Shown here one piece after another: positions 783-36,700 of a stretch of 43,652 nucleotides of DNA. Under the pieces are notes generated by a model. The model did no database searches. It was not told the DNA's origin and was given only the letters and a program-made list of their open reading frames with translations. Position 1 is the first letter of the stretch. Each line of letters begins with the position of its first letter. Made by a program: the position numbers and the translations under genes. This DNA comes from a virus, in UHGV virus genome UHGV-0122704. One strand, written 5' to 3'.

Positions 783-1244
783 ATGTCTATGAACATCAAA
801 TATGACACAACATCCCCTAGCTGCTTGGTGTGGCTCAAGGGTAGGCGCGCCGGTGCTCCAGCGGGTACCCGCAACACTCGTGGCTACTGGGTGGTACAGG
901 TATCTGGTAGAAAGATACAGGCACACCGCCTCATCTGGGAACTACACAACGGGCCTATTCCAGACGGATATGTGGTGGACCACATCAACCAAAACCCCGG
1001 TGACAACAGATTAGAGAACCTGCGCTTAGCTACGGTTAGCGAAAACAACTGTAACGCACGCAGGTCTAAGCGGGAACATCCTAGGGGTGTATACTACACT
1101 GGCACCTGCTGGCGCGGGGAGTTCTGGAAGGACGGTAAGCGTTACATGAAGAAGCACAGCTCCTACGAAGTTATCTGCAAGTGGGTACTAGAGAAACGTC
1201 AAGAGCAACACAAGGCCTTCACCCCGGGGCAGGTGTATATCTGA
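783..1244 (+). CDS. HNH homing endonuclease (HNH_3-type with AP2-like C-terminal domain)
   Basis: ATG 783 preceded by GAGGA. Motif HRLIWELHNGPIPDGYVVDHINQNPGDNRLENLRLATVSENN is a textbook phage HNH_3 signature; C-terminal GVYYTGTCWRGEFWKDGKRY resembles an AP2 DNA-binding domain. Confidence 0.85.
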   Translation: MSMNIKYDTTSPSCLVWLKGRRAGAPAGTRNTRGYWVVQVSGRKIQAHRLIWELHNGPIPDGYVVDHINQNPGDNRLENLRLATVSENNCNARRSKREHPRGVYYTGTCWRGEFWKDGKRYMKKHSSYEVICKWVLEKRQEQHKAFTPGQVYI

Positions 1245-3281: not shown

Positions 3282-3287
3282 TTACAG

Positions 3288-3317
3288 CCTATAGCATCCT
3301 ACGGGGTGCTATGTGAA
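3288..3317 (+). promoter_or_regulatory. Conserved intergenic stem-loop motif, copy 1 (CCTATAGCATCCTACGGGGTGCTATGTGAA)
   Basis: 27/30 identical to 4004..4033. Stem ATAGCA/TGCTAT plus CC/GG around a 4-nt loop; no T-run follows. Confidence 0.6.
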
Positions 3318-3352: not shown

Positions 3353-3928
3353 ATGACCCATTCAACTGGTAAAGTATTCAAGCTCACCGCTGCGGGCAGC
3401 ATTCGTAAAGCGCTGGGCGACGTAGTGGAAGCAAAGCGCAACATCACTATTAGCGCGCTCTTCCACGGCCTGATTAGCAGCAACGTTTCCTGGGCTATGG
3501 ATATGCAGCGCAGCGATGCCGCGGACTTCGATATGGTGCTGCGTACGCTGCTGCCTATCAAGTTCAACAAGGAGTCCGGCAAATACGAATTCAACGCGAA
3601 GAAGTGCTATGCGTCTGCTGAGAAGCTGGGCATCGAACTGGACACTATGCGTCTGGACTATAAACAAGCTGACAAGCAGGAGCGCGAAGTAATTGTAGCC
3701 AGCTTCTATAGCTCCTGTATGGCCCTGTACGCTGCCGAAGCGGAGCAGGTAAAGAATGACGCGCTGGATGCCGATGCAGTGCGCTTGCAAGCGCTGGGGC
3801 GCGTTAAAAACGCTATCAAGAAGGCAAAAGAGACTGGTGTAAGCGACGCTGACCTCGTGTATATGCTGGTATCGCAGGGCGTGGATGTACGCGCTGTACT
3901 GGACGCAACTTTGAAGGCGGCGGCATGA
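3353..3928 (+). CDS. Hypothetical early protein (191 aa) with host-optimal codon bias, probably abundantly expressed
   Basis: ATG 3353 preceded by AAGAGG. Strong preference for CTG/CGT/AAC/TTC/ATC codons like the capsid gene. No recognisable domain. Confidence 0.7.
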   Translation: MTHSTGKVFKLTAAGSIRKALGDVVEAKRNITISALFHGLISSNVSWAMDMQRSDAADFDMVLRTLLPIKFNKESGKYEFNAKKCYASAEKLGIELDTMRLDYKQADKQEREVIVASFYSSCMALYAAEAEQVKNDALDADAVRLQALGRVKNAIKKAKETGVSDADLVYMLVSQGVDVRAVLDATLKAAA

Positions 3929-3996: not shown

Positions 3997-4003
3997 TAGC
4001 AAG

Positions 4004-4033
4004 CCTATAGCGTCCTGCGGGGCGCTATGTGAA
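4004..4033 (+). promoter_or_regulatory. Conserved intergenic stem-loop motif, copy 2 (CCTATAGCGTCCTGCGGGGCGCTATGTGAA)
   Basis: Stem ATAGCG/CGCTAT carries a compensatory A-T to G-C change relative to copy 1; lies just upstream of gene 4046. Confidence 0.6.
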
Positions 4034-8057: not shown

Positions 8058-8504
8058 ATGTCTAAACTTTTTAAAGTAGGTGATAAGGTTCAGCGCATCA
8101 ATAAGATTGAAGGTAAGACCGTGCGCGGCGAGATAGTCACTAAGGGGCCTGGCCTCTATATAGACATCAAGCTAACCGAAGGCGCAGGGATTCATTATGC
8201 CGGGGATATCTATGGCGGCTCTGCCGACTTCTGGCAGCTAATCGAGGAGGCGGACGAGCTGCCACCGGTTCCGTCTAGTGTAGCATATTTAAACACTAAA
8301 CGAGACCCAGGAAACGACCAGCGGCTGGTATTAGAAAAGGACAGCGAGACTAACGAAGGACTACTATACATCGGAATAGTGCCTAGAAAAGGCAGCACCC
8401 GGGCAGAGCGAGAGATTGGTATTAATATGAGCCCCGATTCAGCCCTGCAGTTGGCACATGACATTCGTCGAATGGCTATGAAAGTTAAGCGAGAGATTCA
8501 GTAA
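8058..8504 (+). CDS. Hypothetical protein (148 aa)
   Basis: ATG 8058 preceded by GGAGGG; track start TTG 8052 is a less likely alternative. Confidence 0.5.
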   Translation: MSKLFKVGDKVQRINKIEGKTVRGEIVTKGPGLYIDIKLTEGAGIHYAGDIYGGSADFWQLIEEADELPPVPSSVAYLNTKRDPGNDQRLVLEKDSETNEGLLYIGIVPRKGSTRAEREIGINMSPDSALQLAHDIRRMAMKVKREIQ

Positions 8505-9289
8505 TGGACCAGCCCTGGCTTAGAGCGTGCAAGCGCCTGGCCGTTGGGCAGAGGGCGCGCTTTCGGTGCTGCGGCAGGGACGCCGCCGGGGTGCTCTACA
8601 ATAACCCGGATGCCTGGGAATATTATTGCCACCGCTGCAAACAGGTGGGCAAGGAGCACAAGCAGTACCAGCGCATACAGTTACAGGAAGAGCCGAGGGT
8701 GCAGCCCGCTGCACCTGCAGATGCAATTTGCATTAGCCAAGCGCCTGCGGAAACGCAGAGTTTTATTTACGGATTCCTGACCACAAAGGGAATCATGCCT
8801 GAAATGGTGGAGGATGCAGAATGGAGCAAAGAGAAACAGCGGATAATCTTCCGTGTCGGAAGCGCTGCTCTGGGCCGTGCAGTGCATGCTCGGCAGCAAC
8901 CGAAGTGGGTAATGTACGGCCAGCCAATAGCTTTCGCTGTCGCGGCACCTGCCGTAGCACCGGCTGTAGCTGCGGCCGCGCCTCTAAAGGTCGTGCTCAC
9001 CGAGGACTTACTCTCAGCCCGGAAGATACAGCACGCAGTTACGAGTTACAGTGCATTGAACGTGCAGGCTATAGCTATGCTGGGTACACGCTTGCCCACG
9101 CCGCTGAGGGCTTGGCTGATTCAGAATCGCCCGGAAGTGATTCTGATGCTGGATAATGACCCGGCTGGACATGCTGGGGTAGCAGCGGCGCGCCGAGCAC
9201 TGCGTCCGTTCATGCAGTGCCGTGAGCATTACTTCGCTGCGGACCCGAAGGATGCAGAAATCAAAGAGATTCTGGAGGCTTTACAATGA
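8504..9289 (+). CDS. DNA primase (zinc-ribbon + TOPRIM)
   Basis: N-terminal Cys cluster RFRCCGRD...YYCHRCKQ; TOPRIM-like VILMLDNDPAGHAG with an upstream acidic residue; sits directly before the helicase. Confidence 0.8.
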   Translation: MDQPWLRACKRLAVGQRARFRCCGRDAAGVLYNNPDAWEYYCHRCKQVGKEHKQYQRIQLQEEPRVQPAAPADAICISQAPAETQSFIYGFLTTKGIMPEMVEDAEWSKEKQRIIFRVGSAALGRAVHARQQPKWVMYGQPIAFAVAAPAVAPAVAAAAPLKVVLTEDLLSARKIQHAVTSYSALNVQAIAMLGTRLPTPLRAWLIQNRPEVILMLDNDPAGHAGVAAARRALRPFMQCREHYFAADPKDAEIKEILEALQ

Positions 9290-9480: not shown

Positions 9481-10761
9481 TTGGACCTAATAGTAGTTAA
9501 GGCAATGTGCACGCAGAAGGTATGGAACCGACTGCGTGAACAGATACCCAAATCCATGCTAGCGCCGGACACAGCTAACCTACTAGACTGGGTGGGGTTG
9601 TACTGGAACACGTACCCGGAGCACCAGGAGGTTCAGTGGGATGCAATGCAGAGCATGCTAAACCTCCGGGCGGGGCACCTGTCCCGGGAAGAGCGGGTAA
9701 TCATGGACGAGCTTATGCGGGGAGTACAAGCCGTGCCACAGGATTCTGTGGTGGGGATTGTCCAGACCCTGAACGAGCTGGCCTACAGCGGGGAGGTAGC
9801 AGCGCTGACGCAGCGCTATCAAGACGGCGAGGAGATTGATTACCTGCTGGAAATGAAGCACCTACAGCGCAAGTACGGTGATGGCGCTGCGGTGCATGAT
9901 TCGCTGCTTGAATGGGAGAGCGGTAGTGTTGACGAGATACTTGCCGCGACTGATGAGAGCGGCGGTCTTAAACTGGGCGTGTTCGAGCAACTCGCTAGCA
10001 ACATCCGAGGTCTACGTGGCGGGGACTGCATCGCAGTGGCTGCTCCTGTGGACTCTGGTAAAACTAGCCTGCTTGCTGCTATTGCTGTGGACTTTGCTGA
10101 GCAGATGCAGCAGCAGCCGGAAGTATACGGGGACCGCCCGATTCTCTGGCTGGTTAACGAGGGTCCGGCGACGCGTACAGTGCCGAGGGTATATCAAGCG
10201 GCGCTGCACTGGACTCTGGCGGAGATTAAGGACCGGCACAGTAAGCAAGAGTTCGTGCCAGCCTACCTCAAGAAAGTAGGCAGGGCTGACCGGATTCGCG
10301 TTAAGGCTGCGCACTCCTTGACGATGGCGCAGATATCCACGCTCATGGAGGAGATGCGCCCCGCGGTAATCATCATTGATATGGTGGCGAATATCCGTGG
10401 CGGTACTATGGAGAGTGAGCACCAGAACCTAGAGGCGAAATGGCAGGAGCTGCGCATCCTTGGGTGCGAGAACGACTGCGCTATCGTAGGGACTATGCAG
10501 CTTTCACTCGAAGGTTACAACATGTTGTTCCCGCCGCTCACCGCTATGAAGCAGAGCAAGATTGGTGTACAGGGTGCCTTGGACTTGGCGATTATGATGG
10601 GATGCTTGGACAGGAACGAGCAGCCGCACATGCAAAACGTCCGTGGTATCAGTACTCCGAAGAACAAGATGGCACTGTCTGGTAAAGAGTCGCTACTGCA
10701 ATTCGAGGTGGGATTCGAGCCGGGTCGTTGCCGCTTTGACGAGGGCCAGATTAACCGGTGA
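9481..10761 (+). CDS. Replicative DNA helicase (DnaB-like / T7 gp4 helicase-domain-like)
   Basis: Walker A AAPVDSGKTSLL and Walker B-like AVIIIDMV. TTG start at 9481 sits 5 nt after a strong AAGGAGG; an in-frame ATG at 9506 is the alternative. Confidence 0.85.
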   Translation: MDLIVVKAMCTQKVWNRLREQIPKSMLAPDTANLLDWVGLYWNTYPEHQEVQWDAMQSMLNLRAGHLSREERVIMDELMRGVQAVPQDSVVGIVQTLNELAYSGEVAALTQRYQDGEEIDYLLEMKHLQRKYGDGAAVHDSLLEWESGSVDEILAATDESGGLKLGVFEQLASNIRGLRGGDCIAVAAPVDSGKTSLLAAIAVDFAEQMQQQPEVYGDRPILWLVNEGPATRTVPRVYQAALHWTLAEIKDRHSKQEFVPAYLKKVGRADRIRVKAAHSLTMAQISTLMEEMRPAVIIIDMVANIRGGTMESEHQNLEAKWQELRILGCENDCAIVGTMQLSLEGYNMLFPPLTAMKQSKIGVQGALDLAIMMGCLDRNEQPHMQNVRGISTPKNKMALSGKESLLQFEVGFEPGRCRFDEGQINR

Positions 10762-10813: not shown

Positions 10814-10969
10814 ATGCTTAAACCGTCAGACATTAACTACCTCGACGAAGAGGTAATCAAGGCGTACGCTGCGTCTGCAGGTACTTTCCGTAAACGATTC
10901 GCGCTGGACAGCAGCCAGCTGATTGTGCATCTAGCTATCAATAAAGCTCGGAGGGCTAAGTGGAAATGA
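10814..10969 (+). CDS. Hypothetical small protein (51 aa)
   Basis: ATG 10814 preceded by a near-perfect AGGAGG; its stop overlaps the DNA polymerase start in ATGA. Confidence 0.5.
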   Translation: MLKPSDINYLDEEVIKAYAASAGTFRKRFALDSSQLIVHLAINKARRAKWK

Positions 10970-13377
10970 CAACCAGCATAATGCACCTTGACCTGGAGAC
11001 GGAGAACCATGAATATTACGGCTCTAAAGCAAGCCCATACTGCCCTGACAACTATGTTGTTGAGTCCGCATGGCGTATCGACACGACACAGGCTGACGGT
11101 ACTACCACTGTTGGCGCGACTCAATCGGTGCGCTTCAATTCAAGAGCTGATTTCTTGGCGGGAAACAGTGCAGCAGAAGGCTGCCGGTGGTTTCATATCC
11201 CCGAGGATTGCTGGCTTATTGTTGCGCACAACGCAGCCTATGAGATTTCTTGGTTTCTCACGTACCAGCGGCAGCAGTTTGAGGCCTTCCTCAAGCGCGG
11301 TGGCAGGGTGTTCTGCACAATGCACGGGGAATACATCGCCTCGGACTTTCAGAGCATGTATCCGTCTCTGGACGAGACGGCTCCTAAGTACGGTGGTACG
11401 CACAAAGTAGACGGGGTTAAGATTCTATGGGAGCAGGGTGTGTTAACCTCCCAGATCGACCCGATACTGCTGCATGACTACCTGGTTAACGGGGACATCC
11501 CGAACACGGCCCTGTGCTTCTACGGCCAGTGCGCTACGTTCGCCCAGCGCAATCAGATGCAGTACGTGTGGGAACGTATGGATGCCTTGCTAGCTTGGGC
11601 GTACTGCGAGTGGTTCGGCCTGTTCGTGAATATGCCAATTGCACGCAAGAACCAGGAGGAGCAGGAGCAGCGCATCCGTGAGATTAAGCAGGAACTGCAG
11701 CAGTACATCCCGAAGGACTTGCCGGAGACGCTGGACTTCAATTTCGGGTCGGACTTTCATATGTCTGCACTGGTGTACGGCGGGCCTATAAAGTACCGCA
11801 AGAAGGTCCCCTATGACCCTCCGCAGTACGTCAAGGCCGACTACTATAAGTACGAGGACGAAGATGGTGCGCACACCTATATACCTGTACACGACACGCA
11901 CATGCAAGAACTTCAAACGGAAGGCGGATGGTGGCGTGTAGTGACATATCGTGCGGGTAAGAACAAGGGGCTCCCTAAAGTATTCCGCCTCGATACCGAG
12001 GAAGAGAAACTTAAATGGGAAGACGACCTTTACTTCTGCCCGGGCCTAGTGAACATCCAGGAGCTTCCGGAAGTTATCCGGGAGAAGTACGCAGAGCGCG
12101 GGGAGTTCCGACAGGCGCGCACCCTGCAGGATGGCACCCCTGTGTATAGCACCAGCACTGATGCAATGGAGGCGCTGGCTCGCCAAGGGTTCGAGTTCTG
12201 TAAGTTGGTGAACGAACTGGCGGCGCTGGAGAAGGATACCGGCACTTACTATTTGCGAGAAGTACTGGACGCAGGAGGTAATGTAAAAGAGCGGAAGGGG
12301 ATGCTGCAGTATGTAATCCCGGAGCGTCCCGATGGTTCCGGCATCATTCACCACCGGCTGAATACTTGCGCCACCGTAACCGGGCGCTTGAGTAGCTCTA
12401 ACCCGAACCTGCAGAACCTACCCCGCCCGGATGAGGATGGCGACGGTGTGGCTAAATCCAAGGTGAAGCAGGTGTTCACCAGTAGATTCGGGGACAACGG
12501 ACGTATCACTGAGGTTGACTACTCGGCACTGGAAGTGGTTATGTCCTGTGTACACACGGGTGACAAGAAACTGCTGGGACTGCTGCAGAGTGGTACGGAT
12601 ATGCACTGTTACCGCCTAGCTTTCCGCGAGGGATTACCGTATGAAGAAGTATATGAGCGCTGCCACAACAAGAAGCACGAGCTGCATCCGCTTTGGAAGG
12701 CAATGCGTACAGGTATTAAGGCTCCTAGCTTTGCAGCCCAGTATGGCGCTACGGCTAAGGGGATTGCGTTTGCTACTGGATGTACGGTGGAATTTGCACA
12801 GGCTTTCTTGGACAACGAGGCTGCGCTGTTCCCGCAAACAATTGGCTTCCGCGCTGTTGTCAAGGAAGAGGTAGAACGTACCGGTGCGGAGGGGCGCATG
12901 TACCGGGAGCAGGCTGACGACGGCAGCTACCGAATCTACCGCATTGGGACGTGGACCAGCCCAGCCGGTGCCCGCTACAGTTTCCGTCAGAAAGAGCAGT
13001 GGAAAGAGGTTGTGCCTGGGCAGCGTAAGCAGAAGGTAATGGACTACAAGGAAACAGAGATGGCTAACTACTGGTGCCAGGGGGAAGCATTCTTCCTGAT
13101 GGCGGTAGCCGCCGGTATGGTTCTGCGTGCACTCCTGGCCCGTGACTGGTTCGACAATCAGGTGTGCCTGATTACGAACGTGCACGATGCGTTGTATCTG
13201 GACAGCGCCAACCCGGAGGTTGGACGTGAGGCGAGCCTGCTGGTTAAGCAGTGCATGGAGGATGCACCTAAGCGTATTCACCAGCTCTGGCCTAACTACG
13301 GCATCATTGGTGAGGTCCCGTTCCCAGCAGAGGCTGAGATGGGTACGAGTATGTACAGTAAGGAGAAGGTAGAATGA
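10966..13377 (+). CDS. DNA polymerase (family A, T7 gp5-like)
   Basis: N-terminal 3'-5' exo motif MHLDLETEN; polymerase motifs RLNTCATVTGRLSSSNPNLQNLP, K...FAAQYGA and VHDALYLD. ATG 10966 preferred over the track GTG 10960. Confidence 0.95.
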   Translation: MTTSIMHLDLETENHEYYGSKASPYCPDNYVVESAWRIDTTQADGTTTVGATQSVRFNSRADFLAGNSAAEGCRWFHIPEDCWLIVAHNAAYEISWFLTYQRQQFEAFLKRGGRVFCTMHGEYIASDFQSMYPSLDETAPKYGGTHKVDGVKILWEQGVLTSQIDPILLHDYLVNGDIPNTALCFYGQCATFAQRNQMQYVWERMDALLAWAYCEWFGLFVNMPIARKNQEEQEQRIREIKQELQQYIPKDLPETLDFNFGSDFHMSALVYGGPIKYRKKVPYDPPQYVKADYYKYEDEDGAHTYIPVHDTHMQELQTEGGWWRVVTYRAGKNKGLPKVFRLDTEEEKLKWEDDLYFCPGLVNIQELPEVIREKYAERGEFRQARTLQDGTPVYSTSTDAMEALARQGFEFCKLVNELAALEKDTGTYYLREVLDAGGNVKERKGMLQYVIPERPDGSGIIHHRLNTCATVTGRLSSSNPNLQNLPRPDEDGDGVAKSKVKQVFTSRFGDNGRITEVDYSALEVVMSCVHTGDKKLLGLLQSGTDMHCYRLAFREGLPYEEVYERCHNKKHELHPLWKAMRTGIKAPSFAAQYGATAKGIAFATGCTVEFAQAFLDNEAALFPQTIGFRAVVKEEVERTGAEGRMYREQADDGSYRIYRIGTWTSPAGARYSFRQKEQWKEVVPGQRKQKVMDYKETEMANYWCQGEAFFLMAVAAGMVLRALLARDWFDNQVCLITNVHDALYLDSANPEVGREASLLVKQCMEDAPKRIHQLWPNYGIIGEVPFPAEAEMGTSMYSKEKVE

Positions 13378-13717: not shown

Positions 13718-13736
13718 TAATGTGATACGAGTAGGA
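13718..13736 (+). promoter_or_regulatory. Degenerate copy D of the conserved 19-bp motif (TAATGTgatacGAGTAGGA)
   Basis: Shares the 5' block TAATGT and 3' block GAGTAGGA at the same spacing as the three exact copies; about 20 nt upstream of HNH gene 13757 in an AT-rich intergenic region that also holds a TTGACT -35-like hexamer (13683..13688). Confidence 0.45.
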
Positions 13737-13756: not shown

Positions 13757-14191
13757 ATGTCGATGTGTATTGACCACGGGTATAACAAATGCCTTAACAA
13801 GAACGGATACCGCCGGGCATGGTATAAGCCGACCAGGCGATTGGAGCTGCTGCATCGGGTGGTGTATGCTGAGCATAACGGGCTGGATATAAGGGCGCTG
13901 GCTGGCCTGTCTGTTAGACATACCTGCGATAACCCCAGGTGCATTAACCCTAAGCACTTAGTATTGGGAACGCATATGGATAATATGCGGGACCGTGCAG
14001 AGCGCGGAAGGAACCCAGATGTGCGTGGGGATAGGAACCCAAAAGCGCAGTTAACTTGGGATGCTGTGCAGGATATCAGGGATAACTATATCCCATACAA
14101 GAAAGGTATGCGGCAACACTTTGCTAATAAGTACGGTGTAGGTGTACATGTAATTAGTGACGTAATAAGTAACAGGAGCTGGAATGCCTAA
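13757..14191 (+). CDS. HNH homing endonuclease (HNH_3-type)
   Basis: LHRVVYAEHNG...HTCDNPRCINPKHLVLGTHMDNMRD; RBS AAGAGGA. Confidence 0.85.
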   Translation: MSMCIDHGYNKCLNKNGYRRAWYKPTRRLELLHRVVYAEHNGLDIRALAGLSVRHTCDNPRCINPKHLVLGTHMDNMRDRAERGRNPDVRGDRNPKAQLTWDAVQDIRDNYIPYKKGMRQHFANKYGVGVHVISDVISNRSWNA

Positions 14192-15173
14192 GTTAAACAC
14201 AATAAAGCTATTCACCAAAGAGCAACACATAGATATCTTGAGCAAGCACAGCTCTAACGTGGATGCTGCTGCCGCCTATAATAATCTGGCGGGACTGGAC
14301 GAGCCAGTGGTGTATCGACAGATGGTGAAGTACTGGCGCAGCATATTCCTAGACCACGCTGGGAGCAAGGGTAAGGCAATATCCCACATGAAGGAGGCAC
14401 TAAAGCTCATACAGCCCAGTCCCACTGATGACATCGGCAAAACCTTCGTGCCGGAAGTGTGCCACCGTATTCTCGTAGTTGGGGATTTGCATGCCCCCTA
14501 TACGCACGTAGATGCTATGGCCTTCTTAGAATCTGTGCGAGACGCCTACTGTCCGGACATGGTTGTACAGGTAGGCGACGAGACGGACGGCCACGCTATA
14601 TCATTCCACGAAAGTAACCCGAACCTAGATAGCGCCGGGGTGGAGCTGGAGAAAGCCAAGCTCGTACTGGAGGAGCTGCATGAACTATTCCCGAACCTAC
14701 TGGTTTGCGATTCCAATCACGGCAGTCTGGTTTACCGCAGGGCGAAAGCTCACGGGCTACCAGTGCAATTCATCAAGAAGTACCGAGATATACTTTTCCC
14801 TGAGCATGGTGCCCCGGCGTGGTCTTGGGCTGACGCATGGGTACTCAATACCCCACTTGGCCCGGTTAGATTCCAGCATCAAGTGTCGGGTGACTTCATG
14901 CTCAACGCTAGCCACGAAAGAACCAGCCTTGTCCTTGGTCACGAACATGGTCGCTTTGAGGTGCAATATGCAGCTAGCTCAACAGCTTTGTACTTTGGTG
15001 CGTATGCTGGGTGTCTGATTGACCGTAAGAGCATGGCCTTTGCTTACGGCAGACTCACCCGCAAGAAACCAATCCTGGGTGTGATGGTAATCACCGAGGG
15101 CTGTCCGCAGTTAATCCCGATGCTGCTTGATGATTCCGGAAGGTGGTGTGCAAGAGATAAAACCAAAGACTGA
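14184..15173 (+). CDS. Calcineurin-like metallophosphoesterase (possible nuclease/phosphatase)
   Basis: Ordered motifs GDLHA (D-x-H), GDETDGH (GD-x-x-D), SNHG (N-H) and GHEHG (GH-x-H). Confidence 0.75.
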   Translation: MPKLNTIKLFTKEQHIDILSKHSSNVDAAAAYNNLAGLDEPVVYRQMVKYWRSIFLDHAGSKGKAISHMKEALKLIQPSPTDDIGKTFVPEVCHRILVVGDLHAPYTHVDAMAFLESVRDAYCPDMVVQVGDETDGHAISFHESNPNLDSAGVELEKAKLVLEELHELFPNLLVCDSNHGSLVYRRAKAHGLPVQFIKKYRDILFPEHGAPAWSWADAWVLNTPLGPVRFQHQVSGDFMLNASHERTSLVLGHEHGRFEVQYAASSTALYFGAYAGCLIDRKSMAFAYGRLTRKKPILGVMVITEGCPQLIPMLLDDSGRWCARDKTKD

Positions 15174-15195
15174 TACAGGAAAGAGATTCCGCGGT

Positions 15196-15699
15196 ATGGT
15201 TGTTTATACCTGGGACTGCCCTTACTGTGGCGAGGAGTTTGAGGCGATACGCACTAAGCTATTCAATACCAGTAAGCGCGGCGGCCTTGGTCACTGCGGA
15301 TGTCAAACTAAACTCAGGCAAAGTGAGAAGAATACTGGACGAACTCCGCCTAATAAGCTGGACGACTTAACAGTATCGGCGAATAAGGTATGGGCCTTTA
15401 GCACTAAGTTAGGTAGGAGTATTACTAAGGAAGACGCCAAGGCCTTAGTAAGCGCAGATTGTTATTACTGCGGCGCGCCACCCAGTACCTACCGGGAACT
15501 CGGCAGTGGGAGATGGGCGCGTAAATCCACAGTACCCACTAACGGGATAGACCGGAAGGATTCACGCATTGGGTACCATTTAGACAACTGTGTGCCATGC
15601 TGCCCTACCTGCAACTATATGAAGTCTGACATGCACCACGATGACTTCGTAGGACTGTGCAAACGCATAGCCCTGCATCTGCACGTAAATATCATTTAA
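15196..15699 (+). CDS. Cys-rich HNH-like endonuclease (start uncertain; track start 15127)
   Basis: CPYCGEEF, CGC, CYYCG and YHLDNCVPCCPTCNYMKSDMHHDDF suggest a zinc-binding HNH fold. ATG 15196 chosen to avoid a 45-nt overlap. Confidence 0.5.
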   Translation: MVVYTWDCPYCGEEFEAIRTKLFNTSKRGGLGHCGCQTKLRQSEKNTGRTPPNKLDDLTVSANKVWAFSTKLGRSITKEDAKALVSADCYYCGAPPSTYRELGSGRWARKSTVPTNGIDRKDSRIGYHLDNCVPCCPTCNYMKSDMHHDDFVGLCKRIALHLHVNII

Positions 15700-15720
15700 A
15701 CTAAACGAGGACGTAATTAT

Positions 15721-16509
15721 ATGACTACGAATGTATTGGCATCCCTGAACGCTCTGGTAGACGCAGCAATCGGAACCCAAGATGTAGATATGCGGGAAAC
15801 CGCACAGGGCGGCGCATATGAGGACGTGCTGCTGCCGAAGGGTGAATACTACGGCTACTTCACCGAGTACGTAGAAATCGGTAAGCGCCTGCCGACTAAG
15901 GGTGGCAAGCCGACCGGTAAGCCCGCAGTAGCTAACGTACGCATCGGCATTGTAGTGTTCGGTCCTAACGGCGAAGTGAAGCGTATCCGCCCGTTCCCGA
16001 TGGCTATCAGTAACTTTGAGCGCGCAGGCTTCAAGAAGTTCTTCGACAAGCTCAACTACGACAATAGCATTAAGCATGCAGCACAGCGTCTGGGCCAGGC
16101 CTTCACCTTCCCGATTGATGAGCACACCAGCGCCGCGGGCAAGAAGTCCAACATCGTGGACCTGTCCGGTATCCGCCCGATTCCGAAATTCGACCCGAAC
16201 ACTGGCGAGCCTATCAAGATGCCTGCCATGGATGCCTCTGAGATTAAGCTGTTCCTGTGGAACAACCCAACCAAAGAGACCTGGGATAGCCTGCACATCG
16301 AAGGCACCTTCGACGATGGTAAGAGCAAGAACTGGATTCAGGAGGATATGTACAAGGCTGTAGACTTCCCTGGCAGTGCTCTGGATATTCTGCTGAACGC
16401 TGGCTCGGTTCCTAGTCCGGCAGCTATGCAGGCACCCGCAGCCCCGGCTGCACCAGTGGCCCCTGCAGCCCCTGTGGCGCCAGCAGCACCCGCCGCACCT
16501 CAAGCCTAA
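15721..16509 (+). CDS. Hypothetical protein with Pro/Ala-rich C-terminal repeat; host-like codon bias (possibly an abundant DNA-binding protein)
   Basis: RBS GAGGA; C-terminus APAAPAAPVAPAAPVAPAAPAAPQA; codon usage resembles the capsid gene. Confidence 0.7.
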   Translation: MTTNVLASLNALVDAAIGTQDVDMRETAQGGAYEDVLLPKGEYYGYFTEYVEIGKRLPTKGGKPTGKPAVANVRIGIVVFGPNGEVKRIRPFPMAISNFERAGFKKFFDKLNYDNSIKHAAQRLGQAFTFPIDEHTSAAGKKSNIVDLSGIRPIPKFDPNTGEPIKMPAMDASEIKLFLWNNPTKETWDSLHIEGTFDDGKSKNWIQEDMYKAVDFPGSALDILLNAGSVPSPAAMQAPAAPAAPVAPAAPVAPAAPAAPQA

Positions 16510-16532: not shown

Positions 16533-16549
16533 GGCCCCTCCTAGGGGCC
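16533..16549 (+). promoter_or_regulatory. GC-rich hairpin (GGCCCCT / AGGGGCC, 3-nt loop) with no T-tract
   Basis: Perfect 7-bp stem in the intergenic gap after gene 15721..16509; could be a processing or pause site. Confidence 0.35.
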
Positions 16550-16562
16550 TTAGAGGAAGCCT

Positions 16563-16817
16563 ATGAACATCATCAAGATTCTCATCAAACTCCTGAGCGC
16601 AGCCTACACAGCAGAAGCTAAACGCGCCGATGCCAAAGCGCAGTTTAACGAGCAGTTGTCAGTTAAATTCGCAGACGACGCAGTGCGTCTGGCCGCTCAA
16701 TCCGAGGCGCGCGTAGAGGCATCCAAGCATAGCAAAGAGTTAGCCGAGGCGTGCGCTTGCCATGCTGATAACCTGCGCGCTAAGCGTGATGAAGTAGCTA
16801 ACTTCCTGGAGGTATAA
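16563..16817 (+). CDS. Hypothetical protein (84 aa)
   Basis: ATG 16563 preceded by AGAGGAAG. Confidence 0.55.
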   Translation: MNIIKILIKLLSAAYTAEAKRADAKAQFNEQLSVKFADDAVRLAAQSEARVEASKHSKELAEACACHADNLRAKRDEVANFLEV

Positions 16818-17096
16818 ATGCGCATAATCACATGGGCCAAAGAACAGTACGCTGTGTTTCTGCTTCTGCGTGCACAGCGTTTGCAGAAGCGAGCAAATGA
16901 CTGGCACCGGGCAGCTAATTCTCACGCACACAGGGCAAGCCTTCTGGGTGCCGAGATTAGCGCACACCGCTATCACTTGACTCGCCAGTGCGCCAAGTCC
17001 CGACGCCGTGCATACGCCCTGGGTGCAGAGGCTACGGCCACTGAGACCAAAGCCCACAATTTCATTTCAAAACACAAATTGAAAGGATTTGACTAA
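16818..17096 (+). CDS. Hypothetical protein (92 aa), basic
   Basis: ATG 16818 preceded by GGAGG. Confidence 0.55.
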   Translation: MRIITWAKEQYAVFLLLRAQRLQKRANDWHRAANSHAHRASLLGAEISAHRYHLTRQCAKSRRRAYALGAEATATETKAHNFISKHKLKGFD

Positions 17097-17634: not shown

Positions 17635-17796
17635 ATGCGTAACTTCTTTGCAAAATCATTTTACTTCCTGTTAGTAGCCCCGCTAGTGCCTGTAGCTATC
17701 CTGTGCTGGGCATTTGAGAAGGTAGAAAACAGTCAGGCGCCGACCGCCTGGGAATCCTGGGCGCGTAAGTTGACCAAGAAGGTTACGGGGGTCTGA
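17635..17796 (+). CDS. Small membrane protein (53 aa, one TM helix)
   Basis: MRNFFAKSFYFLLVAPLVPVAILCWAF...; same length and M-R-(K/N)-F start as the preceding ORF; stop overlaps the exonuclease start. Confidence 0.45.
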   Translation: MRNFFAKSFYFLLVAPLVPVAILCWAFEKVENSQAPTAWESWARKLTKKVTGV

Positions 17797-18764
17797 TGAT
17801 TATCAACGGGGTTGACTTGTCCCAGCTCGGGGAGCAGTTAGCTCCGCAGAACTCTGGGAAGATTCTGCTGTACGACGCGGATTTCACAGTTTATAAATCT
17901 GCTGCTACAGTGAAACGTTTGGATACCGCGATACGCCGCTTCTATCAGCTGGTGCTTGAGGACATGTTCCTGGTCGGCTGCTCAGAAGCAGTGGCGTATC
18001 TGACGCCTACGGGGTGTGCTAAGTGCCTGCGCTGGCACCTGCCTACGGCTAAGCCGTACCAAGGGAACCGCAATAAGCGTCAGGAGCTGCCACTCAAGGC
18101 ACCGTTGAAGCGGCACCTGATTGAGAACCCGGACCAGTATTCTGAGCATGGCATACAAGTGGTAAGCAGTGACTACTTCGAGGCGGATGACCTGTTCATA
18201 ATGGATTCGTACAGCTTCGGGGACCGTGGAATCCTGATGTCTCAGGACAAGGACTCCTGGCTCAGCCCTATGGCCCGGTTCGATATCCCAACCGGAACCG
18301 TATGGCCTGCCTTGGATAACCCCTTCGGATGGATTAAGTGGGATGATACCCAGGCTATGCCGGTACGAGCGCATGGCACTAAGTTCTTCTGGTGGCAGAT
18401 GCTAGCAGGAGATGACGCAGATAACGTCAAAGGCATCACATTGCTTGATGGGAAGCTCTGTGGGAAGCGAACGGCCTTTGATGCTATCTACCCTATTACC
18501 TCAGAGCAGGACGCCGCAGAATTCGTTGTAGCGGCTTACGCTCGAAACAACCAAGATGTACTCGCAGAGGCAGAATGCCTGTTCCTGCGGCGCTCCCCGT
18601 CAGATTCAGCGTACCTGTATCTGATGTCACTGTTGACTACTCCCAGTCTGCGTGACTGGGTGCATTCGCTGCACGAGTACCATAAACAGCATATACAGTG
18701 GATACAGGAGCACCCAGACAATGGCGAAGATGTCTGCGAAGGAAATGAGCCTGCGGGCGATTGA
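17796..18764 (+). CDS. 5'-3' exonuclease (T7 gp6-like, FEN family)
   Basis: ILLYDADFTVYKSAA, SQDKDSWL and GDDADNVKGI parallel T7 gp6 acidic-cluster motifs. Confidence 0.85.
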   Translation: MIINGVDLSQLGEQLAPQNSGKILLYDADFTVYKSAATVKRLDTAIRRFYQLVLEDMFLVGCSEAVAYLTPTGCAKCLRWHLPTAKPYQGNRNKRQELPLKAPLKRHLIENPDQYSEHGIQVVSSDYFEADDLFIMDSYSFGDRGILMSQDKDSWLSPMARFDIPTGTVWPALDNPFGWIKWDDTQAMPVRAHGTKFFWWQMLAGDDADNVKGITLLDGKLCGKRTAFDAIYPITSEQDAAEFVVAAYARNNQDVLAEAECLFLRRSPSDSAYLYLMSLLTTPSLRDWVHSLHEYHKQHIQWIQEHPDNGEDVCEGNEPAGD

Positions 18765-22581: not shown

Positions 22582-22600
22582 TAATGTTACAGGAGTAGGA
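22582..22600 (+). promoter_or_regulatory. Copy B of conserved 19-bp motif TAATGTTACAGGAGTAGGA, abutting the start codon of gene 22601
   Basis: Exact 19-mer shared with 34490..34508 and 17-mer shared with 1859..1875. Sits between RNAP and the first late gene; its AGGAG doubles as the RBS. Confidence 0.6.
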
Positions 22601-23041
22601 ATGAAGTTAAAACACACTAGTAAAACTTCCGACTACACTCTCAGAGTTCTGTATAAGTCTGACGACATTACGGACGCAGTGAAGCAACTGCATGAACTGG
22701 GCCACGGCATTAGTCGGGGCCTGGCTCCAGAGCAGCACTACTGGAGGGTGCTGGGAAGTATACTGGGTAAACAGTATATACTAGGGGTCTATGACTCCCA
22801 AGGCGACTTAGTCGGTGCTGTCAGCTACTACCCAGAGGCTGTAGAGGACTGTCATTACGTAGAGCCTGTGCTGTATACAGACTTCTTCGTATTGAAACCG
22901 GACAACGGCGCGGCAGTGTCTGTGATTATGCAAGGCCTGCGCGCAATAGCCAAATGCATGCGCGCTGGGCGTATAGCCATTAGCCGGAGTACATCGGATA
23001 ACACGTACAAGACAACTTATCATTTAGTGAGGTCAGAATGA
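22601..23041 (+). CDS. Hypothetical protein (146 aa)
   Basis: First ORF after RNAP, immediately downstream of motif copy B. Confidence 0.6.
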   Translation: MKLKHTSKTSDYTLRVLYKSDDITDAVKQLHELGHGISRGLAPEQHYWRVLGSILGKQYILGVYDSQGDLVGAVSYYPEAVEDCHYVEPVLYTDFFVLKPDNGAAVSVIMQGLRAIAKCMRAGRIAISRSTSDNTYKTTYHLVRSE

Positions 23042-33746: not shown

Positions 33747-36700
33747 ATGGCTCAGTTTCTGAACCAAGAACCGAATCCACAGGAAAAGGATTCTGCTAAG
33801 GGCGCAACACTTAAACCTGCGCCTGAGCGCGTAGATTGGAACGATGCCGGAGACAACGGCTTAAACGCACTGGAGCGTGCCTCCTTACTGGCGCAGGCCA
33901 AGACCCCAGCTACTACAGCCGGGGAGAGCTTTGCGTCTGGTATGGGTAACAGCATCATCGCCGCAGCTATCCGTAAGGCCTCTGCCCCGGCATTTGACCG
34001 GGACCAGAACTTTAACGCCAAGCAGACTCTGAGCAGCGATACCAGGGCTAAGCTGTATGCTCCGAATCAGGAAGAGATTGAGTACCTGCACGACTCTGTA
34101 TCGGTCGAGGATTACAACTACCGCATGCAGCAGATGCTTGAGCAACGCAACCGTGACCGCTTAATGGCTGACAACACGGTAGCCGGGTTCGCGGGTATGT
34201 TGGTGGGTGATTCTCCGTTCATCCTGGCCCCGATGTCTGCCGCTGGTATTGCTGGCCGCGCAGGCTTAGCTGCACGGACTGCTATCCGCGCTGCTGACGT
34301 AGGCTCCGCATTCTATGCGCAGGACCAACTGGGCCAGTCTGCTGCGGTAACTGCACTGGTAGCGGGCGTAGCTGGGTTGGACCAGCTCTGGGATATGTCT
34401 AGGGCTGCTAAAGCTGCTGCTAAGGCTCGTACTGGGCGTGAGCCTATGTTCGACCCAGAAGCGCCTACAACTCGTACAGCGAGGGACGCTAATGTTACAG
34501 GAGTAGGAGAGGGAGAGGAAATCCTTACTAAGACACTGGATGAAAGCATCCAAGTATCTAGAAACAATACCGCCTCCGTGAACATGAAAGCACAGCACGT
34601 AGTTCAGTTCTTGAAGAAGTCCGAACACTTAACAGCAGGCCAGAAGGCTATTCTGGACACGCTGGGCGATGCTGTAAATGACATTGATTTTAAACTGGTA
34701 GCAGGCTCCGCAAACCGCAGCCGCTACACTTACGCACAGCAAGATTTAGCTAAGCGTGGAGAGGTGTCTCTACGCGCACCTAAGCGAGCTAATGGCAGCA
34801 CATGGACTACAGCAGGGGACGCACTGCGTGCTATGGATGCAGACACAAGCAGGGTAGCCGTGCACGAACTGATTCATGCCGCCACTGCGCGCGCCGTTGA
34901 CAGTAACCCAGAGATTGCTAAGCGCCTGGATGAAGTGCGCGCTGTTATTGCAGCGGACTCCACCTTGACGCCGCGTATGCGGTATTACGCTAGTAATGTG
35001 CACGAGATGCTGGCAGGCTTAGGTGACAGCCCTGAGTGGGTTGAGCATCTGGCGCGGACGAAATCCCCAACCGGTAAGAGCATGCTCCGCCAACTGGGCG
35101 AGTACATCATGAATGCCCTGGGCATCAAGGCCAAAGGTTCTGCCTTGGAAGATGTCTTGGATGCGTACGAGGACGCCGTTAAGTGGACAGCTAAGGATTA
35201 TGCAGACCAAGCCCAGGGCTTCCGTAGTGAAGCCTTCCAGGACCTGGCGGGCAGCACTACCCTAAACGAGGCTAAGGGTGCCCAAGCTATGCTGGATGGC
35301 GCTAAGAAGAAGCTCTCTACTATGTTTGCCCTGTACGATAACATCGCTCAAGGCAATGAAGACTTGGCTAAACTGCTAGTGTCGGATGCGTCCGCAGTAG
35401 GCGGCCGTCGCCCGTCTGTAGTGGACTTCAAGCGCAACCTCACTTTGGAGATGGACGCCAGCGCTAGCGTAGTGGAAGACGCTATCCTGGGCGCGTTGAA
35501 GGATAAGGGTGTAGGTTTCTCTGAGCGCTTCTTCCATCGGAGCAAGTTCCGCGCTGAGCGGGCTGCACTGGAAGACCGCCTGAGCAAGTACCTGGATGCT
35601 GCCTACAGTGCTGATGTAAACGGCCGAGCTGTTCCCGTACCGGATGCAGAGATTGCCCCACTGGTTGACGCCTATCGCCGCTCTGGCTGGGCAGGCAAGT
35701 GGCACGAGCATATGCTCAATGCTGGTCTAGTGGATGATGGTGCGTTGGTTAAATCCGATTACTACTTCCCGCGTCAGTACAGCTACGACAAGATGCGCCA
35801 AGGTATTGCGCAGGGTAACACTCTGGACGACTACCGCGCCCTGTTCAGGTCCGCCCTGCGGGACGTGTACCCGAGCATGGAGTCAGAGGTAGTGCAGCGT
35901 GTTGCAAAGGAGATGGTTGACGGTATCTACAACGGCCGTGCAGGGCAGTCCGGCCCGATGTGGAAGCAGCTGATTAACGGCATGGGTAACGACGAGGTCG
36001 TTATGGCTATGCGTAGCGCTGGTGTAGATGAATCTGCAATCCAGAGTTTCCTGGCTGGTAACGTACGCGAATCCGGTAGCACATCCCCTGCGCGGAACCT
36101 GCGTCAGCGTACTCGGTTCAACATGGACAAAGAGTATCTGGTGAACGGTAAGAGCATGCGCATGCAGGACCTGATGGATACTGATGTAGCCAAGGTTATG
36201 CACGGGTACACTAACCGTATGTCTGGGCGTGTAGGCATGGCCTATGCAGGCGTACAGGACCTGGGCCAGCTAGCTAAGATGATTGATGAGTCTAAGCACG
36301 CACTGGCGGATTCCGCTAAGTGGGAGAAGACAGTCAATGACACCATCGACTTTATCCTGGGTGGGGCGCCTGCTGACGCCGGACAGCTTCCGGATTTGCT
36401 GCGTGCAGCCGGGAACATGGCTAACGCCACCATGCTTAAGAACTCCGGCCTGTATCAGCTGACTGACACTGCCCTGGCTATGAAGGAGTTCGGTATGGCT
36501 AGAGTGCTGCGTAGTATGCGTGACCAGCCTTGGTTCAAGGAAGGTGCCGTAGCTATCAAGACTCCGGATATGGCTACCCGTCTAGACACTGTACTGCGAG
36601 GTAATATCCAGAAGGAGATGCGCTTCCGCTGGTTGAATACGTACGCCGACGATAACCTGGACCTGACCCGTCAGGCCTCTTGGTTCAATGTAACCCAGAA

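Follow-up and report, generated by a model that had tools for sequence, protein, structure and literature searches.

[quoted passage not shown] The conserved SSB-Ct hexapeptide, DDDIPF, is the part through which SSBs enter into protein interactions (PMC5872125). Acidic tails are also found in DUF669 proteins, and the genomes that encode these lack other SSBs (Kazlauskas et al. 2016, PMC4889955). The closest described relatives of the protein studied here are gp21 of phages LUZ19 and phiKMV and g26 of phage fHe-Kpn01. Among the early or late-early phage proteins seen on 2D gels, LUZ19 Gp21 was one of the two most abundant. Its expression from a single copy stops the growth of P. aeruginosa, with transcription and translation lowered by 20-25% and DNA synthesis unchanged, and the authors were unable to predict its function (Lavigne et al. 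2013, PMC3604761). The 277 AA long g26, a direct Drulisvirus orthologue, had no HHpred hit and was found by LC-MS/MS in preparations of particles, together with RNA polymerase, exonuclease, endonuclease VII, peptidase and metallophosphoesterase. The toxic Gp22 of fHe-Kpn01 is a nucleotidyltransferase and thus a different gene, and the name gp21 in a 2026 preprint on a phiKMV ligase and in the RAZR paper refers to proteins of other phages, which are irrelevant here.

The window, i.e. the whole stretch of 43,652 nucleotides that was analyzed, is essentially the whole, circularly permuted genome of a Drulisvirus, a KP34-like Klebsiella podophage. It begins within a tail-fibre gene, as the ORF 111-686 matches just the C-terminal 190 positions of PHROG 18512 (tail fibre), and the 43.6 kb therefore represent a permuted complete genome and not a fragment. 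The region of the gene studied here is 97% identical at the nucleotide level to Klebsiella phage RCIP0044, and close matches to it were found in 250 phage records. The gene order is of the phiKMV type: primase (8504-9289), helicase (9481-10761), DNA polymerase (10960-13377) and exonuclease (17796-18764) are followed by endonuclease VII, an RNA polymerase in a late position and the structural genes, the first two being a Toprim primase and a DnaB-like helicase. Within this order, the gene at 15721-16509 is likely to encode the replicative SSB of the phage, an abundant OB-fold protein that would coat ssDNA at forks and recombination intermediates. The gene and its surroundings comprise the following features:

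15707-15711, + strand: Shine-Dalgarno sequence GAGGA, read from the sequence, 9 nt before the ATG
15721-16509, + strand: probable phage SSB coding sequence, 262 AA, from the ORF list, with ATG start and TAA stop
15721-15837, + strand: N-terminal helix (AA 5-19) and acidic linker with the phi-D-M...G-G motif, net charge about -5
15841-16158, + strand: predicted OB-fold domain (AA 41-146), basic and rich in aromatics, from the model
16168-16416, + strand: acidic C-terminal subdomain (AA 150-232), from conserved columns and model helices
16417-16506, + strand: uncharged Pro/Ala tail (AA 233-262), from composition, spacing and a pLDDT of 53-68
16432-16503, + strand: array of eight Ala-Pro-x units (AA 238-261) with perfect period-3 prolines
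16533-16549, + strand: GC-rich hairpin GGCCCCT-CCT-AGGGGCC with a 7-bp stem, 24 nt past the stop codon

By orthology, the coding sequence corresponds to phiKMV/LUZ19 gp21 and fHe-Kpn01 g26 (PHROG 862, CDD PHA02030), with which it shares the core, the genomic slot and an uncharged tail of hydrophobic residues and proline, LUZ19 gp21 having the longer tail (~95 AA, Ala/Val/Pro/Gln). The match to PHROG 862, which is described as 'unknown function', spans the full length (E = 1.1e-80, residues 6-260 against positions 4-268 of the 276 in the profile), and BLASTP aligns residues 19-228 with LUZ19 gp21 at 36% identity (E = 2e-40). Profile searches of the protein against Pfam, NCBIfam and PDB sequences returned no match. 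A 307-AA antisense ORF (15580-16503, - strand) covers nearly the whole gene and looks like the shadow of a codon-biased gene on the + strand.

The slot between the DNA polymerase and the 5'-3' exonuclease is shared by the window, AttikonH5 and LUZ19, and it recurs in a chromosomal element of Pannonibacter and in a 43-kb contig binned with a Pedobacter MAG, where the homologues have strongly acidic tails. The phiKMV-like block in Pannonibacter sp. SL95 (NZ_JAPPRC010000006.1, 722376-739032; locus L005) lies inside a 1.5-Mb bacterial contig and holds genes for helicase, DNA polymerase, the SSB homologue, exonuclease, endonuclease VII, a single-subunit RNA polymerase and portal, so this alphaproteobacterium may carry an integrated prophage of the T7 supergroup. 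Among the early and middle ORFs of the window, PHROG scans named no other SSB, and six-frame searches of the window with T7 gp2.5, N4 SSB and E. coli SSB as probes were empty, phmmer being used for the E. coli probe. The GenBank record of AttikonH5 calls the orthologue 'single strand DNA binding protein', the only such label in the 31.3 kb that were examined. The gene combines a high abundance of the product, as expected from codon bias and LUZ19 proteomics, with a location in the replication module, and it is the sole SSB candidate beside the phage's own replisome.

Since the gene lies directly upstream of the exonuclease and endonuclease VII block, its main role could alternatively be in recombination, as an annealing or mediator protein working with these two nucleases, while fork coating would be secondary or left to the host SSB. 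T7 gp2.5, according to the annotation of the T7 record, unites SSB and annealing activities. Nevertheless, a predominantly recombinational role is improbable, because the predicted structure is unlike the Rad52/Redbeta, RecT, Erf and Sak4 folds and because very high abundance better suits a stoichiometric coating protein. A contribution to recombination is in any case compatible with a replicative SSB.

The surroundings of the gene contain further elements. Four HNH-type endonuclease ORFs are present in the window (783-1244, 2067-2483, 13757-14191 and 15127-15699). The last of these adjoins the gene studied here at a position where AttikonH5 has a small membrane-protein gene instead, which suggests a homing-endonuclease insertion beside the SSB gene. 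A 19-nt motif, TAATGTTACAGGAGTAGGA, occurs at 1857-1875, 13718-13736, 22582-22600 and 34490-34508 with 84-100% identity. Two of its copies sit just 5' of ORF starts (the HNH endonuclease at 13757 and the ORF at 22601), and the copy at 13718 is preceded by an AT-rich stretch with a TTGACT box. The motif may be part of a promoter/RBS cassette or of mobile HNH genes. The phiKMV nick-site consensus was not enriched in the window, with 6 matches against 3.7 expected.

An AlphaFold2 model of the protein was built on an alignment of 61 sequences and reached a mean pLDDT of 86.7, with values mostly above 90 for residues 40 to about 225. It contains a five-stranded OB barrel (b1 41-56, b2 70-80, b3 86-89, b4 127-136 and b5 142-146) with a helix between strands 3 and 4 (103-111), followed by the helices of the C-terminal subdomain (185-190, 205-211 and 220-226). 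The OB segment has a pI of 9.84, and 14 of its 113 residues are aromatic. The segments flanking this basic part are acidic, and the pattern is kept family-wide. In the N-terminal segment, D23, G30 and G31 are invariant in the family alignment A2. Members with Pro/Ala tails retain D23 in 94% and the GG pair in 96% of cases, and the motif appears stricter in them, although this trend is weak and confounded by relatedness. The most conserved part of the family is the C-terminal subdomain (F178, P183, W188, N204, Q207, G218 and S219; alignments A1, A2 and A4), whose median net charge is -4 to -6.

OB folds are functionally promiscuous. The best structural matches of the model are ssDNA binders such as PrgE, RPA70, LEF-3 and PriB. 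Foldseek against the PDB found nothing at E <= 1e-3, the top-ranked matches being PriB, SsbB and mitochondrial SSB. Among predicted viral structures (BFVD), 77 matches were obtained at E <= 1e-3, mostly to uncharacterized phage proteins but including Xp10 37L, a DUF669 protein (E = 1e-5), and a protein named SSB.

The model also bears on the NCBIfam name 'phage replication initiation protein, NGO0469 family', which would make the protein a replication initiator or a primase-like protein. Distant family members do match the corresponding NF046043 over the OB region (P0343 with 2.2e-10 and P0378 with 7e-10), but such members reach only 18-40 bits against a cutoff of 75 bits, and the protein encoded in the window has no match to it. 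The name itself is based on a BLAST match from 2007 to a nanovirus Rep, with 26% identity over 109 AA. As Rep/HUH, primase and AAA+ features are all missing from the model and the genome already has its own primase and helicase, an initiator function is extremely unlikely.

The comparison with characterized SSBs shows similarities in architecture and gene context. Like T7 gp2.5, the protein is in the range of about 230-260 AA, has one OB fold in the model and a C-terminal tail that is predicted to be flexible, is probably very abundant, and is encoded in the replication block of a T7-like podophage with its own primase, helicase and DNA polymerase. Unlike T7 gp2.5, it has no acidic, aromatic-ended C-terminal tail. 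Neither the protein nor about 200 family members had a Pfam hit to the gp2.5 family (PF21265 SBB_T7 or PF10991 Enc34_ssDNA-bd), whereas T7 gp2.5 itself, used as a positive control, matches PF21265 with 1.1e-89. In hhalign comparisons with T7 gp2.5, both for the single sequence and for the family (A2 against A3), the probability was 0.1-0.2%. With E. coli-type SSBs, the protein shares the succession of an OB core and a low-complexity, Pro-rich C-terminal region that is predicted to be disordered, and several of its homologues end in DDDIPF/Y/W. It differs from them in that the core has no sequence similarity, N- and C-terminal subdomains are added and the acidic tip is missing. No SSB model of Pfam was matched by the family members scanned.

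N4 SSB and DUF669, which have been proposed to be diverged OB-fold SSBs and are portrayed much like the present family by Kazlauskas et al. 2016, are similar in being phage-specific and not linked by sequence to classical OB folds, and N4 SSB is of comparable length (265 AA). Here, hhalign gave a probability of 0.2% for both the single sequence and the family alignment A6, and the best N4 SSB alignment ran co-linearly through the OB region without reaching significance. No family member matched DUF669 in Pfam, and the BFVD fold match described above is the sole link. From these comparisons, the family is not demonstrably related to N4 SSB or DUF669 and appears, by sequence, to be separate from T7 gp2.5, N4 SSB and E. 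coli SSB alike. PrgE of pCF10 (PDB 8s4s), an atypical OB-fold SSB that binds dsDNA as well as ssDNA, is 6% identical to the protein and, with 128 AA, lacks the C-terminal subdomain and the tail.

The family itself is large. A core profile without the tail matched 982 representative clusters, of which 692 had E <= 1e-10, the best 150 of the 982 clusters being those that were examined for links to DUF669 or NGO0469. Homologues are present in about 1,000 phage records, with hosts ranging from Klebsiella to Rhizobium and Nostoc, and among the matches listed all are podophages of 40-46 kb. Pfam searches with 61 and 143 family members gave scattered sub-threshold matches, none of which were to SSB or DUF669. 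Some database labels of homologues proved to be wrong. 'Large tegument protein', a term for herpesvirus proteins of the UL36 type that stands in many GenBank records, has no Pfam, PHROG or NCBIfam support and is confined to the low-complexity, Pro/Ala-tailed proteins of these phages. It probably arose via low-complexity Pro/Ala similarity. 'Fe-S oxidoreductase', found in some GenBank records, is contradicted by a protein that contains no cysteine at all and no Pfam enzyme domain.

The C-terminus of the protein, PAAMQAPAAPAAPVAPAAPVAPAAPAAPQA, ends in APQA, and the tail (AA 233-262) consists of 16 alanines, nine prolines, two valines, two glutamines and one methionine. The tail contains no D, E, K or R, in agreement with the earlier note, in which the acidic tail of T7 gp2.5 had been reported as lacking. 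The same note had described a P-A-A-P-x-A repeat; the low-complexity C-terminus is real, but its true unit is the tripeptide Ala-Pro-x. All distances between prolines are 3 or 6, and the seven pairs of prolines three residues apart, against 2.2 expected, were matched by 11 of 200,000 composition-preserving shuffles. A proline at every third residue would fit a polyproline-II helix, and the tail is predicted from the model to be disordered or extended. At the DNA level, the repeat is an imperfect tandem for which Tandem Repeats Finder reported an 18-nt period (2.8 copies, score 58) and, in the same search, a 27-nt period at 16431-16493 (score 70). The array has eight triplets, compared to 13-14 in close relatives that are 78-94% identical. 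It is thus 18 AA or six triplets shorter, which indicates that the triplet copy number drifts. Differences by whole triplets are consistent with slippage or recombination inside the array.

Tails of this kind prevail in the family. Among 264 members, 175 have uncharged Pro/Ala(/Val)-rich tails, 50 have acidic tails and 39 fall into a mixed class of other tails. In the Pro/Ala class, a proline spacing of 3 is enriched 2.0-fold while spacings of 1 and 2 are reduced to about 0.3-fold. Position -3 is a proline in 116 of 177 tails, and the register runs to the C-terminal end. The acidic tails include several that end in DDDIPF (P0343 ...LGDFDDDIPF, P0359 ...GDDDIPF and P0297 ...ELDDDIPF) or in similar sequences (P0327 ...DDDIPY, P0257 ...DDDIPW and P0116 ...DDEFDDIPY). 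Proteins with such tails match the core over the full length with E-values of 1e-44 to 1e-82. The occurrence of acidic tails in 50 of the 264 members strengthens the interpretation as an SSB. One idea was that the DDDIPF versions belong to phages depending on the replisome of the host. This was rejected, since the homologues from cultured phages are all from podophages of 40-46 kb and all four loci that were read encode their own polymerase beside the gene.

Nineteen of the tails, from the acidic and the 'other' class, end in a sequence resembling D-P-L-A-x-L-G-L. This tip was seen in P0378, P0355, P0383, P0367 and the Pannonibacter locus (L005 7905-8855), i.e. in Rhizobium-type phages and related metagenomic sequences. 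To our knowledge, no interaction motif of such a form has been described. Some of the Pro-rich tails contain an embedded DVPFDGG.

The codon usage of the gene was also analyzed. The earlier note had proposed a capsid-like codon usage that implied very high expression, and had suggested a codon adaptation index (CAI) per gene as a check. With weights from an E. coli table, the CAI of the gene is 0.458, which is rank 4 among 56 ORFs, compared to 0.537 for the capsid gene and 0.20-0.26 for the upstream neighbors. In a score referenced to the capsid gene, it is second among 40 genes and first behind the capsid gene itself. When synonymous codons were resampled from the remaining genome, none of 5000 resamples attained the observed score (z = 5.7), so that the proposed similarity holds. 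Regarding the individual codons that had been named, CTG (fraction of 0.87 against 0.46 genome-wide), TTC, AAC and ATC are enriched, but CGT (0.25 against 0.27) and CCG (0.44 against 0.40) are not enriched over genome-wide usage. Enrichment was also found for GGC, which had not been listed. The bias is carried by the core, with a codon adaptiveness of 0.71 compared to 0.47 in the tail, where the codons for Ala and Pro are mixed. High codon scores were also observed for the early ORF 3353-3928 (191 AA, PHROG 5277), whose CAI of 0.476 and capsid-referenced score of 0.668 are as high as those of the gene studied here. It is flanked by two copies of a 32-nt element (3286-3317 and 4002-4033, 91% identical) holding an inverted repeat, and it probably encodes a further early protein of very high abundance, from a transcript with boundaries of its own.

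Very high expression is backed by experiment for the homologues, because LUZ19 Gp21 is abundant on 2D gels and fHe-Kpn01 g26 was seen by LC-MS/MS. Directly upstream of LUZ19 gp21, a phage-specific promoter is annotated. In the window, the ribosome-binding site of the gene is a good one. The gap to the upstream HNH ORF, which ends at 15699, is 21 nt and therefore leaves no room for a promoter, and scans for sigma-70 promoters and intrinsic terminators around the gene were at background level. The hairpin at 16533-16549 occurs once in the window, and it and its flanks are near-identical in AttikonH5 although the neighboring coding DNA has diverged. It may be a candidate terminator or an mRNA-stabilizing stem, a function put forward with caution since a U-run is missing and the fold has a z-score of only -1.26. 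The ORF that directly follows (16563-16817) is also codon-optimized, with a CAI of 0.448, and the orthologues of this ORF and of 16818-17096 in fHe-Kpn01, g27 and g28, were detected by LC-MS/MS. For this reason, the gene may be the first in a series encoding abundant small proteins.

The detection of g26 in purified particles of fHe-Kpn01, together with the label 'structural protein' given to the homologue of Pectobacterium phage PPWS1 and the 'large tegument protein' entries in GenBank, could alternatively point to a virion-associated protein that is structural or ejected. This is very unlikely, as the non-structural enzymes in the same preparation point to carry-over of abundant proteins, and the gene lies within the replication module, upstream of the RNA polymerase, with LUZ19 Gp21 being late-early. 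Another possibility is that the protein mainly acts as a host-takeover effector and not in phage replication. In this case, an abundant OB-fold protein would dampen transcription and translation in the host by binding RNA or a host protein. The toxicity of LUZ19 Gp21 hit transcription and translation and not replication. Overexpression toxicity is common for nucleic-acid-coating proteins, though, and does not discriminate between an effector and an SSB. The slot between polymerase and exonuclease is fixed across phyla, and homologues carry the SSB-Ct hexapeptide DDDIPF in genomes that have no other SSB. An effector function is therefore unlikely. An SSB had also been the guess of the earlier note, as an example of an abundant DNA-metabolism protein, and this guess is supported indirectly by an OB-fold model matching ssDNA binders, by the DDDIPF-tipped homologues, by the conserved slot and by the lack of another SSB.

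As a replicative SSB, the protein would be produced very abundantly during the middle phase of infection. The OB domain (AA 41-146), basic and rich in aromatic residues, would coat the ssDNA that is exposed by the primase, helicase and DNA polymerase of the phage, and would probably also cover the recombination intermediates of the adjacent exonuclease and endonuclease VII. ssDNA binding by this protein is proposed on the basis of fold, homologues and gene context. The acidic N-terminal segment and the acidic C-terminal subdomain would flank the OB fold, and the tail would be a modular, fast-evolving appendage that is the counterpart of the interaction tail of other SSBs. The acidic DDDIPF-tipped tails of other clades presumably act as such interaction tails do. 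In the clade of the window, the Ala-Pro-x array is most plausibly an extended arm of the polyproline-II type, which would contact a phage partner or set the spacing and cooperativity on ssDNA. All of these tail functions are inferred. Unlike acidic tails, an uncharged tail is unable to mimic DNA, a role that might be taken by the acidic N-terminal phi-D-M...G-G segment. More specifically, it is conceivable, but doubtful, that the Ala-Pro-x tail takes over the function of the acidic SSB tail: a polyproline-II arm in a fixed register, with Pro at -3, that links the SSB to the replisome or drives self-assembly on ssDNA via proline and hydrophobic recognition and not via electrostatics. If this is true, one SSB core has changed between at least three tail types, comprising the acidic DDDIPF-type tip, the D-P-L-A-x-L-G-L tip and the hydrophobic-Pro repeats, with the DVPFDGG-containing Pro-rich tails as intermediates, which would constitute a natural experiment.

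The phiKMV-, KP34- and Fri1-like podophages belong to the most widely used therapeutic and model phages of Pseudomonas, Klebsiella and Acinetobacter, and most of their records list no SSB. Naming this gene would close the last obvious gap in their replisome and would correct the misleading labels 'large tegument protein' and 'Fe-S oxidoreductase', which recur among the roughly 1,000 records with a homologue. It would also offer an explanation for the abundant and toxic Gp21 of LUZ19. Judging from the model and the family comparison, the gene most likely represents an SSB-like OB-fold family outside the characterized SSB families, with a non-acidic proline-repeat tail. An SSB family in which most members have uncharged, period-3 proline tails while relatives end in DDDIPF would be a tractable system for studying the function of SSB tails, and would equally be suited to studies of how the contacts between SSBs and the replisome evolve.
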